Assembly: GCA_025060395.1 (NCBI GenBank)
Contig: JANXCC010000007.1
Coordinates: 3,308-67,307 of the forward strand
Length of the DNA stretch: 64,000 nt
Source: Candidatus Bipolaricaulota bacterium
GTDB taxonomy: Bacteria > Bipolaricaulota > Bipolaricaulia > RBG-16-55-9 > DRXL01
Reading direction: 5' to 3'
Shown here one piece after another: positions 35,109-48,386 of this stretch. Within the stretch, counting starts at the first letter, position 1. Each line of letters begins with the position of its first letter. Under the pieces are notes generated by a model that ran no database searches, had not been told where the DNA came from, and saw only the letters and a list, made by a program, of their open reading frames with translations. The translations under genes were made by a program, and so were the position numbers.

Positions 35109-36197
35109 TCAGGCGACGACGAAGTGGATGACGTCGCCGTCCTGGACTTCATACTTTTCGCCGTGGCGGTGGAGATGCCCAAGCTCTCGTAAGCGCGCCA
35201 GCGATCTTTCCCTCACGAGCTCATCCCAGCGAGCGACCTCGCATAAGACAAAGCGTTCAGCAAAATCCGTGTGAATCTTGGCGCCGGCTTGCGGGGCGTG
35301 TGTCCCCTTGGGCACTGTCCAGGCGCGCACCTCCGGACCGTCGATAGTATAGAACGTCACCAAGTGCAAGATCTCGTAACCGGCGCGCACGAGCGCATCA
35401 AGCCCAGACTCTTCAATGCCTAGCTCTCTTCTAAACGCACGGCGCTCTTCGTCGGTGTCAGCAGCCTCATAGACTTCAGACTCTAATCGCCCACGAATGA
35501 CAACGGCTTTCGTCCCACGTTCCGTGGCGAGCCTCTGCACTTCTCGAGAGTATTCGTTCTCACCTTCATCGCCGACGTTGGCGACAAAGAGCACGGGCTT
35601 GAGAGTAAGGGGGTTTAGGTCTTTCAGAAACGGGCGCTCGTGCTCGTGGATAGCTATGTCGCGAACGTGCTTCCCTTGCGCCAATCCCTGACGAAGTCGC
35701 TCGAAGAACTCATATTCAGCCTTGGCGGCTTTATCGCCGAGCTTGACCCGAGAGGCGAGCGATTTCACGCGCTTTTCAACGAGTTCTAGGTCCTTGAGCA
35801 AGAGCTCAGTCTCGATCACTTCGATATCGCGTTTGGGATCGAGCGAGCCGTCGACGTGGATGACTTCAGGATCTTCAAAGCAGCGCACAATGTGCACGAT
35901 GGCGTCGACGTTCCGAATCTCAGCGAGAAACTGATTGCCGAGTCCTTGGCCCTCACTAGCGCCCTTCACAAGCCCCGCGATATCTATAAACTGCAGCGTC
36001 GTTGGGACCTTCTTTTTTTCTGGGAAGAGCTGATGGAGCGCATCGAGCCTGGGATCAGGCACAGGGGCAACGCCGACGTTGGGCTGGATGGTGGTGAACG
36101 GATAGTTATCAACCTTGGCCCCAGCGGCCGTCAGAGCATTGAAGATCGTGCTCTTGCCGACATTGGGGAGGCCCACCAGCCCGCAGCTGAAGCCCAT
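35109..36197 (-). CDS. ychF: redox-regulated ATPase YchF
   Basis: 362 aa with [21 protein letters not shown] and a C-terminal TGS-like ...GDVIHF. Confidence 0.95.
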
Positions 36198-36199
36198 GC

Positions 36200-36877
36200 C
36201 TATCCTTTCATCTTCTTGAGCTCCTGGATGAAATTCTCACGATCACCCACAAAGCGATCGATGGCGCGGCTTGCGACCTTGAGGGGGAGCTCCTCCAAGC
36301 GCGTATAGTGCGTCCCCATCACTGCATTGATATAGTCGAGTAGTTTGGTCTCTTTGAGATTAGCTGTGCGCAGCTCCTTGCGCAAACGGGCGAGCTGGGC
36401 TTCGGTGGCCAAGGGTACGGAGGGAGCTTCTTCGGCTTCATGCTTCTTATAAAGACTTAAGCCGAATTGATCCCCAAGTGCCCGGAAGCAGCGCTTCAGC
36501 GCATCAGAGACTGCGCCCTTGAGAGCGGTCTCATAGGCACGGGCGGGATCGGTCTGGCTCACTCCAGAGCCAAACCCCACGTCCTCGTGTACCACGTCGC
36601 CGATGCGAATCCGGCACTCACAGAGATACCCGACGCTATACGTGCCTTCACTCAAATCTTCGTAAATTTTCTCTAATCGTTTGATCTCGCGCTGCCAGCC
36701 ACCATACCCAAAGATTCTATTGGCCGTCTCGATGATGTCATAGGTGGGCAGATAGGTCAACCCATCAGGACGACGTTGCACTCGCGATTCATCTAAAGGC
36801 TTCTCTAGTTCTGCAATCTGCTCTGGGGAAAAAGGGGACGCTTTGTGAGGCTTCCCTTCCTTGAAGAGATCGGGCAT
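36200..36877 (-). CDS. Rad52/Rad22-family single-strand annealing protein
   Basis: ATG 36877 follows AAGGAG. The region ...LTYLPTYDIIETANRIFGYGGWQREI...YSVGYLCECRIRIGDVVHEDVGFGSG...AYETALKGAVSDALKRCFRALGDQFGLSLY aligns motif-for-motif with the Rad52 N-terminal annealing domain. Confidence 0.75.
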   Translation of the reverse strand: MPDLFKEGKPHKASPFSPEQIAELEKPLDESRVQRRPDGLTYLPTYDIIETANRIFGYGGWQREIKRLEKIYEDLSEGTYSVGYLCECRIRIGDVVHEDVGFGSGVSQTDPARAYETALKGAVSDALKRCFRALGDQFGLSLYKKHEAEEAPSVPLATEAQLARLRKELRTANLKETKLLDYINAVMGTHYTRLEELPLKVASRAIDRFVGDRENFIQELKKMKG

Positions 36878-36976
36878 GGGCTTCAGCTCCTTTCTCACTC
36901 ACGACTCTCGCAGGAGCGCGCAAGCGATCCCCCTCTCCCCCCACGCTCACTAATCAGCCCTTGGCCCTGAGGGTGG

Positions 36977-37492
36977 TCACTCGTGCGAATGTTCCCCCTG
37001 TAAGCTCTTAATGTACGCGATGATCGCTTGAATATCGTCGTCACTGAGCTGCCCTTCGTAGACGGGCATAAGGTTCGCTTGGAAGCCCTTGGTGATCTTG
37101 GCGTTTGGGTTTAAGATGGACTCGCGAAGATAAGCATCGTCAGCGATGACCTTCGTCTCGGTGCCATCGGGCAGCACGACTTCAACTTCATGGCCATAGA
37201 GCCCCTTCCATGTGGGGCCGACGAGCGTCGTTCCGTCGGCACTGTGACATGCTGTGCACCCTACAGAAGTCGCGAGAAACTGCCCGCGAGCGACGAGCTG
37301 CTCCTCTTCAGACGGGGGAGCAGGTTGTTCGGCGGCAGGGGGCTGAGCCGGCTGTTCTGAGGCTGGGGGAGATGGTTGTGATGCCGGTTGTTGCGCCCGT
37401 TCTCCCCCTCCTCCTCCACATCCCGTCACAAAAGCAAGCACACAAGCCAAGACAATCCCGTACCACATCCTGCATCTATGACTCACGAGCAT
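36977..37492 (-). CDS. lipoprotein-anchored class I c-type cytochrome
   Basis: Lipobox (AFVTGCGG), a Pro/Ala/Gln-rich linker, the single heme motif CTACH and a distal Met (NLMPVY). Confidence 0.8.
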   Translation of the reverse strand: MLVSHRCRMWYGIVLACVLAFVTGCGGGGGERAQQPASQPSPPASEQPAQPPAAEQPAPPSEEEQLVARGQFLATSVGCTACHSADGTTLVGPTWKGLYGHEVEVVLPDGTETKVIADDAYLRESILNPNAKITKGFQANLMPVYEGQLSDDDIQAIIAYIKSLQGEHSHE

Positions 37493-37567: not shown

Positions 37568-38440
37568 CTAGAGCCGCAGAGCGTTTCTCACGAATTCGAC
37601 GACCTGGCGTGGCGTTCTGGCTACAGGGATCCCCTGGGCTTCAAGAGCTTGTGCTTTGGCGTGAGCTGTCCCCTCCCCCCCTGAGATGATCGCCCCGGCA
37701 TGCCCCATGCGCTTGCCCGGCGGCGCTGAAAACCCCGCAATGTACGCAACTACGGGCTTGGTCATCTCGCGGGAGATGAACTCGGCAGCTCGCTCTTCGT
37801 CGGTACCCCCAATCTCACCGACCAAAACAACAGCTTTCGTTTGACGGTCTTTCTGGAAGAGCTCTAGGATATCAATGAAAGAACTCCCGATGATCGGATC
37901 GCCCCCGATCCCGACGACCGTAGACTGTCCAATCCCCACATGCGACAGCTGAGCGGCGATCTCATAGGTGAGGGTGCCGCTGCGGCTGACGATCCCCACG
38001 GGACCAGGCTTGAAGACGTGATTGGGCAGAATCCCCACCTTGGACTTGCCCGGCGAGATCACCCCCGGACAGTTAGGCCCAATCAGGCGACTCCCCCTCT
38101 GAGAGACGACGTGCACGACCTTGAGCATCTGATGAACCGGGATATGCTCTGTGATGCAAACGATCAACTTGATCCCGGCCTCAGCGGCCTCTAAGATAGC
38201 GTCGGCGGCAAACTGGGCGGGCACAAAGATTGCGCTCGCGTCGATCTTGTGGGCTTTAACGGCCTCAGCGACCGTGTTGTAGATGGGGATACCCTCGAAA
38301 TCTAAGCCGCCTTTGCCCGGCGTCACTCCAGCCACGATCTTGGTGCCATACTCACGCATCCGCTGCGCATGAAAGCTGCCTTCGCTCCCCGTGATCCCCT
38401 GGACTAAGACCGTCGTGCTGGCGTTAATGAGAATACCCAT
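37568..38440 (-). CDS. sucD: succinate--CoA ligase subunit alpha
   Basis: 290 aa with [23 protein letters not shown] and a phosphohistidine loop GHAGAII. Confidence 0.9.
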
Positions 38441-47780: not shown

Positions 47781-48386
47781 TCAGAGCTGTACTCTTCCGG
47801 CCAGTGCCCGCGAGAGCGTTACTTCATCAGCGAATTCTAAGTCGCGCCCCACTGGAACCCCATGCGCAATCTGAGTAACTTTTATCCCCAAGGGCTTGAT
47901 CTTTCTTGCTAAATACATGGCTGTCGCTTCGCCCTCAACTTTCGGGTCGAGCGCGAGAATCACTTCTTGGACATTCCCCTTGCTCAAGCGCACGAGAAGC
48001 TCTTCGATATGGAGCTGCTCCGGCCCGATGCCGTTGACTGGCGAGAGCACCCCCCCTAAGACGTGATAGAGCCCGCGATATTCACGGGTCTTTTCGAGCT
48101 TCAACAGCTCTTGAGGATGGCTCACGACACAGATTACAGAAGAATCGCGCTGAGCATCCCGACAGATCTCGCACAGCTCGTGCTCGATCTCCGTGAAATT
48201 GAAGCACTCTTTGCAAGTACGGATCCTCTCCTTGACCTGAGCGATCGCTTGACTGAGCGACTCTAACTCTTCAGGGGGCTGCGCGAGCAAATAGAAGGCG
48301 AGGCGCTCGGCGGTCTTACGCCCGATGCTCGGTAGCTTCTGAAATTCTTTGATGAGATGCTCCAACGGCTCAGGATACTTGTCCAT
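47781..48386 (-). CDS. recR: recombination protein RecR
   Basis: 201 aa with a helix-hairpin-helix (LPSIGRKTAERLAF), a C4 zinc finger (CKECFNFTE...CEIC) and a Toprim domain. Confidence 0.95.
   Translation of the reverse strand: MDKYPEPLEHLIKEFQKLPSIGRKTAERLAFYLLAQPPEELESLSQAIAQVKERIRTCKECFNFTEIEHELCEICRDAQRDSSVICVVSHPQELLKLEKTREYRGLYHVLGGVLSPVNGIGPEQLHIEELLVRLSKGNVQEVILALDPKVEGEATAMYLARKIKPLGIKVTQIAHGVPVGRDLEFADEVTLSRALAGRVQL

Follow-up and report, generated by a model that had tools for sequence, protein, structure and literature searches.

A probable host-retained single-strand annealing protein of the Rad52 family in Bipolaricaulota

Bacterial Rad52-type annealases are regarded as phage equipment. 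To our knowledge, DdrA of Deinococcus, a distant and atypical member of the family, is the one chromosomal exception that has been studied. What, then, is a Rad52-family gene doing directly upstream of ychF among the housekeeping genes of a Bipolaricaulota genome, and how did it get there? We analyzed a stretch of 64,000 nucleotides (hereafter, the window) from a Bipolaricaulota (Acetothermia) metagenome-assembled genome of 1.70 Mb that is 88% complete, with a reported contamination of 2.6%. Based on the evidence below, we infer that the window's protein is a domesticated, cellular Rad52/Sak-type single-strand annealing protein with an annealing role parallel to RecFOR, a reading to which we assign a probability of roughly 0.6.

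Automatic annotation already labels homologs of this protein "Rad52/Rad22 family DNA repair protein." A literature search found no paper linking Rad52 with Bipolaricaulota, Acetothermia, or "Fraserbacteria"; the first cultured isolate of the Bipolaricaulota was described in a 2025 preprint. New here are the assignment of the C-terminal domain, the SSB tail, the exclusion of orthology with DdrA, the inventory of RecFOR genes, a test of selection, and the reconstruction of a move of the gene from a comEC site to the sucD-ychF site.

The source assembly contains two full-length recA genes (C1:45763-46725 and C44:77592-78554), and leuS (C22; C14/C78) and dprA (C11, C33) are also duplicated, which suggests that it merges two related strains or carries some contamination.

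The gene and its junction with ychF

The gene, its translation signals, and its nearest neighbors are all on the reverse strand:

36200..36877, (-): rad52-like CDS, 225 aa plus TAG stop (ORF and translation; PF04098, E 9.7e-29; AlphaFold2 pLDDT 91.5)
36887..36892, (-): ribosome-binding site AAGGAG of rad52 (sequence reading; kept in all family relatives)
36203..36208, (-): predicted ychF Shine-Dalgarno sequence AAAGGA, within the Lys-Gly codon pair that precedes the rad52 stop
35109..36197, (-): ychF, the next gene downstream, translationally coupled (PF06071 and PF01926)
36977..37492, (-): lipoprotein-type cytochrome c gene, between sucD and rad52 (PF00034)
37568..38440, (-): sucD, ancestral direct upstream neighbor of ychF (Pfam CoA_binding and Ligase_CoA)

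A preliminary description of the window had reported a 225-aa Rad52-type ORF and quoted its motifs, all of which we found in the translation of 36200-36877. AAGGAG lies 8 nt upstream of the ATG at 36877, an arrangement shared by the relatives, and because of this conserved spacing we preferred the 225-aa start over the GTG at 36898. At the other end of the gene, the TAG stop (36200-36202) is followed by GC and then by the ychF ATG (36195-36197), leaving the 2-nt gap that had been described. This junction (AAG GGG or AAA GGA, stop, 1 to 3 nt, ATG) is kept in 11 of 12 family genomes compared, the exception being L014, whose protein ends Lys-Ser. Read from the sequence, the last rad52 codons thus act as the Shine-Dalgarno sequence for ychF. 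The two genes adjoin in every family f1 locus long enough to show both sides.

Pfam identified the neighbors as YchF, IF-2, DUF503, an AMP-binding acyl-CoA ligase, cytochrome c, and SucD and, further out, DUF501, Ddl, a sigma-70 factor, an Fe-S assembly protein, RseC, and PriA. This agrees with the flanks named previously (cytochrome c, sucD, and infB). Also as described, all neighbors are housekeeping genes, and no phage, integrase, or exonuclease gene was detected with Pfam within ∼10 kb 3′ or ∼7 kb 5′ of rad52.

A Rad52-type annealing domain

The proposal that the gene encodes a protein with a Rad52-family annealing domain is borne out by PF04098 (Rad52_Rad22), which matches residues 22-150 with 100.7 bits (E 9.7e-29), well above the cut-off of 20.3. 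Mgm101 is a weaker Pfam match of the same protein, and the PHROGs matches are to "DNA repair protein" and "recombinase" families. Yeast and human RAD52 chains were recovered by phmmer at E values of 1e-15 to 1e-16, with 33-37% identity over about 115-130 residues. The cut-off of the eukaryotic Rad52 subfamily model TIGR00607 (224.8) was not reached (78.6 bits).

An AlphaFold2 model of the 225-aa protein, built with 120 homologs as input, has a mean pLDDT of 91.5. Its N-terminal part was delimited by a Foldseek comparison with human RAD52:

36434..36832, (-): N-terminal Rad52 annealing domain, residues ∼16-148 (Foldseek versus human RAD52 5jrb_A)

The model superposes on 5jrb_A with an rmsd of 1.6 Å over 131 columns (33% identity, E 1.8e-13), the stretch placed on the human N-terminal domain being residues ∼18-146; as modeled, this domain has the Rad52 beta-beta-beta-alpha fold. 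R32, Y42, K128, R129, and R132 align with human R55, Y65, K152, R153, and R156, the residues of the inner groove that hold single-stranded DNA (ssDNA); the R32/R55 pair falls outside the printed alignment and was placed by ungapped offset. Y42, K128, and R129 are invariant in an alignment of 34 sequences. The human lysines K102 and K133, of the outer double-stranded DNA-binding site, have no lysine counterparts: T78 aligns with the first and a residue within Q108-D110 with the second.

The disordered N-terminal tail (residues 1-5, window 36863-36877, pLDDT ∼52) carries a (D/E)-L-F motif that is kept in 13 of 17 aligned Bipolaricaulota sequences. As a sequence pattern, it may resemble the final three positions of QL(S/D)LF, the beta-clamp-binding motif.

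We compared the protein with Rad52-like annealases of phages and prophages, namely, Sak of lactococcal phage ul36 and its relatives and PF04098 proteins of actinophages, cyanophages, and Thermus phage phiFa. Their annealing domains belong to the same subfamily (29-38% identity; 107-138 bits against the subfamily HMM). The inner-groove residues are common to the window's protein and eukaryotic Rad52, which scores 89-107 bits against the same HMM. We considered and rejected a special closeness to eukaryotic Rad52, as homologs borne on mobile elements in Roseibium and Sulfurimonas reach equal or higher scores and the deep nodes of the tree form a polytomy.

A C-terminal domain of the Red-beta/Erf kind

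The preliminary description had called the helical C-terminal part similar in kind to that of phage recombinases, and structure comparison gave this a more definite form:

36212..36409, (-): C-terminal four-helix domain, residues ∼157-222, Red-beta/Erf C-terminal-domain-like fold

Modeled alone, residues 150-225 form a four-helix bundle (pLDDT 88) whose best six PDB matches are all the Red-beta C-terminal domain (CTD), with TM-scores of 0.67-0.72, probabilities of 0.97-1.0, and E values of 0.06-0.4, which are weak although TM-score and probability are high. The rmsd is 1.8 Å over 61-63 columns for the lambda Exo complexes and 4.6-5.1 Å for the SSB-peptide complexes, and the probability of every PDB match after these six is ≤0.1. 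The best matches in a library of viral structures are the C-terminal parts of Erf-family annealases. No Pfam family matches this domain.

The two-part layout, in which a small helical domain of the partner-binding type comes after the annealing domain, is shared with the phage annealases. Eukaryotic Rad52 differs in having a C-terminal region that binds RPA and Rad51, in place of which the window's protein has the Red-beta/Erf-type domain. The likeness to the Red-beta CTD of phage lambda is one of fold (TM-score ∼0.7), with only 11-12% sequence identity, and the two are mounted differently, the lambda domain on a Red-beta-type N-domain and the modeled one, with its putative SSB binding, on a Rad52-type N-domain. 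The host SSB ends in ...EEGEEEIPF, in which EEEIPF is the canonical acidic tip of SSB proteins. The Red-beta CTD binds the SSB tail and its exonuclease partner, lambda Exo, via overlapping surfaces (PMC11611040). By analogy, the C-domain described here presumably docks SSB or another partner.

Comparison with DdrA

An alternative that we consider unlikely, yet the best of those weighed here, is that the protein resembles DdrA in function, binding 3′ ssDNA ends and shielding them from exonucleases under stress, with no annealing. DdrA is likewise a Rad52-family protein encoded on a bacterial chromosome, outside any phage and alongside RecFOR, and PF04098 has matches in Deinococcus and Thermus. 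It calls for caution in reading the window's protein as an annealase, as this studied chromosomal member protects 3′ ends and had no annealing activity in vitro (PMC515370).

The resemblance in sequence is very distant. DdrA sequences, retrieved with a query that was 80-91% identical to proteins annotated as DdrA, gave 25 bits against the window's protein in BLASTP over a single motif (SDALKRC...FG..Y), the only one in common. They scored 22 bits against the subfamily HMM, compared with 89-138 bits for eukaryotic and phage annealases, and lay on a long separate branch in the tree; we therefore rejected orthology. The C-terminal region of DdrA is also unlike that of the window's protein, whose full inner ssDNA groove and C-domain of the SSB-docking type, as modeled, point to an annealase.

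A move from comEC to the sucD-ychF spacer

In families f2 to f4, rad52 follows a conserved ∼65-aa ORF, with ruvX or tsaE upstream, and is convergent with comEC, the tails of the two genes overlapping. At the corresponding site in the window's genome (C2:41050-43234), ruvX is followed by the small ORF and then by comEC, the latter two being direct neighbors. At the present site, sucD directly abuts ychF in four genomes of the order that have no rad52 there; two of these lack rad52 altogether, and two have it at the old comEC locus. The direct sucD-ychF junction in these four genomes and the emptied old site together indicate that rad52 moved into the sucD-ychF spacer in the ancestor of genera g1 and g2.

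The history that we propose would begin with a single acquisition of rad52 from the pool of phages or mobile elements. Its first site would have been downstream of the 65-aa ORF, with comEC converging on it. A transfer to the sucD-ychF spacer would have followed in the ancestor of the window's family, with gain of a sigma-70-type promoter and translational coupling to ychF, and in the window's genome a cytochrome c gene would later have been inserted upstream, with loss of the −10 box. The coupling to ychF noted in the preliminary description is thus genuine, but its conservation is limited to the window's own family, where it arose by insertion at an older sucD-ychF junction. Because that junction existed before rad52 arrived, the coupling is not very informative about whether the protein is functionally linked to YchF.

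An alignment of the sequences upstream of rad52 in 12 genomes shows a conserved promoter at the new site, cTTGCAc-N17-cATACTATA followed by GAGAAAGGAG. The window retains part of it:

36918..36923, (-): remnant TTGCGC of the −35 box of the rad52 promoter (upstream-region alignment, 12 genomes)

The −10 box, cATACTATA in the relatives, is deleted in the window's genome, leaving TTGCGC alone. Among the 12 family genomes compared, only this one has a cytochrome c gene at this position. A promoter-like site lies upstream of that gene at 37538-37510, and the sequence suggests that transcription of rad52 now probably starts there and runs through cytochrome c. In the sister genome L029, a VapBC-like toxin-antitoxin pair occupies the corresponding stretch upstream of rad52. 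The spacer is an insertion hot spot.

The small ORF at the old site (G000:C2:41565-41762, in the window's own genome but outside the window) encodes ∼65 aa with the pattern ...VQYGYV.LS.P.EDFE.FVE.LV... and has no Pfam or PDB relative. Its counterparts lie immediately upstream of rad52 in L036-L043 and L078. Of 151 genomes of the phylum, 45 have the ORF, among them entire families that lack rad52, and it is older and more widespread than rad52. The idea that it encodes an obligate Rad52 partner is weakened by those families and by its persistence alone at the old locus in the window's family.

The arrangement in families f2 to f4, where rad52 overlaps the tail of comEC, and the presence of both comEC and DprA in the window's genome would also suit a protein that anneals or processes ssDNA imported through ComEC in natural transformation, for example, in reassembling plasmids or fragments. 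We regard this as improbable: the genes are convergent, hence not in an operon; rad52 has gone from that locus in the window's family while comEC is still there; and many genomes have the small ORF beside comEC without rad52.

Inheritance and selection

Full-length homologs (52-94% identity) were found only in assemblies of Bipolaricaulota, Acetothermia, and "Fraserbacteria"; beyond these, identity drops sharply to ∼40%, in the N-domain alone. Across the 151 genomes sampled from the phylum, rad52 is present in 23, comprising 22 of the 33 genomes of the window's order and one genome of another family. Within the genus, 10 of the 11 other sampled genomes have it, and the large families f6 to f8 of the same sample have none. 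Because rad52 was not found in five genomes of the order that are at least 90% complete, the gene is dispensable and its distribution patchy.

Maximum-likelihood analysis of 98 sequences over 144 columns placed the Bipolaricaulota proteins together in a single clade (support, 98/98), in which three starred subclades match host families. At its base, this clade joins a polytomy that also includes eukaryotic Rad52 and clades in which phages are mixed with bacteria from scattered taxa. In comparisons with nine same-family genomes, dN/dS was 0.02-0.06 wherever dS was estimable, equal to the values for ychF in the same genomes, with values of 0.018 for the N-domain and 0.069 for the C-domain. The GC content of rad52 (0.54; GC3, 0.62) is like that of its neighbors and genome. 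In the related loci, all neighbors are housekeeping genes (tsaE, panC, dnaK/dnaJ, ruvX, comEC, leuS, and amidases), and no mobile-element gene lies beside rad52 in any of ∼20 loci. The gene is thus vertically inherited and under strong purifying selection in one order of the Bipolaricaulota. The "domesticated chromosomal" annealing protein postulated from the window fits this monophyly, purifying selection, and native base composition.

The homologs outside the phylum are set differently. At three outgroup bacterial loci (31-45% identity), which lie in prophages or mobile elements, the direct neighbors of the gene encode Mu Gam-like proteins, exonucleases, integrases, Abi proteins, and methyltransferases. 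In a Microbacterium phage, an exonuclease gene directly precedes the Rad52-type gene, and in Thermus phage phiFa, DnaB and a RecB-family nuclease are close by. The homologs examined therefore match the earlier statement that the family is usually phage-borne and sits beside an exonuclease, having an exonuclease, Gam, DnaB, or integrase gene near them, unlike the window's gene, which is chromosomal, has no nuclease partner, and lies outside any prophage.

The phage- or mobile-element-borne state of the nearest relatives outside the phylum, together with the variable insertion spot upstream, which holds cytochrome c or toxin-antitoxin genes depending on the genome, could be taken to mean that rad52 is what is left of a prophage or mobile element that has decayed and that it persists by chance or in a selfish or antiphage capacity. 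The absence of mobile-element genes at the ∼20 loci, the single clade following host families, the constraint on both domains, and the native base composition make this very improbable.

Recombination background

RecO (C33), RecR, RecF, RecA, and SSB of the window's genome all score above their NCBIfam cut-offs, with RecR encoded within the window at 47793-48365, and RecO is also found in every Rad52-bearing relative. RecT, a phage-type gene carried by few bacteria, is absent from the window's genome. For AddAB, AddA is absent, and the one candidate, a UvrD-like helicase, falls short of the cut-off. RecJ was not found in this assembly, which is 88% complete. We rejected its absence as a correlate of rad52, as all 11 other genomes of the genus have RecJ, so that the gap reflects assembly incompleteness. 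In family f6, every genome listed, including two closed ones, has neither RecJ nor rad52, and RecO is present.

The suggestion that the protein compensates for a missing RecO/RecT-type function hardly survives this inventory: the absence of RecT and the RecJ gap speak for a replacement mediator, but RecO is present, which refutes the idea for RecO, RecF, RecR, and RecA are present as well, and no other mediator has been correspondingly gained in the lineages that lack Rad52. The gene adds to a complete RecFOR/RecA system and fills no hole in it.

Proposed role and significance

As a domesticated single-strand annealing protein, the window's protein would form rings, be recruited to SSB-coated ssDNA through its C-domain, and anneal complementary strands without ATP. 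It would thereby offer a RecA-independent annealing route, in double-strand-break repair, single-strand annealing, or gap repair, alongside RecFOR rather than in its place. Counting against this reading are the unconserved K102/K133 positions, the patchy distribution, the loss of the gene's own −10 box, and the weak E values of the C-domain matches.

More tentatively, the cellular Rad52 ring may be a standing recombination factor of this deep-branching bacterial order, docked on SSB via the Red-beta/Erf-type C-domain and acting independently of RecA beside RecFOR. If the ring does dock on SSB, it would resemble eukaryotic Rad52 working with RPA, and the system would be a bacterial, nonviral counterpart of the Rad52-RPA system.

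The protein appears to be a typical annealase, with a full ssDNA groove and a tail of the SSB-docking type in the models, that hosts of several families have retained under selection as tight as that on a housekeeping GTPase and whose move between two loci can be traced. It would thus be a clean natural case of a cell taking over a phage recombinase and is a compact candidate for biochemistry and for building recombineering tools for lineages that are hard to manipulate. With RecFOR and RecA intact, it leaves the understanding of bacterial recombination unchanged.

Some homologs themselves end like the tip of an SSB. Of 58 family members, 12 end in ...PF and 17 in F (e.g., EEKPF, ETPF, and EVPF), these endings being found in the Acetothermia-type subclade (P0033-P0058). 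By analogy with the Red-beta CTD, it is possible that such homologs bind themselves or function as hubs via their C-domains. The window's protein ends instead in KKMKG, a consequence of its final codons now doubling as the ychF Shine-Dalgarno sequence.
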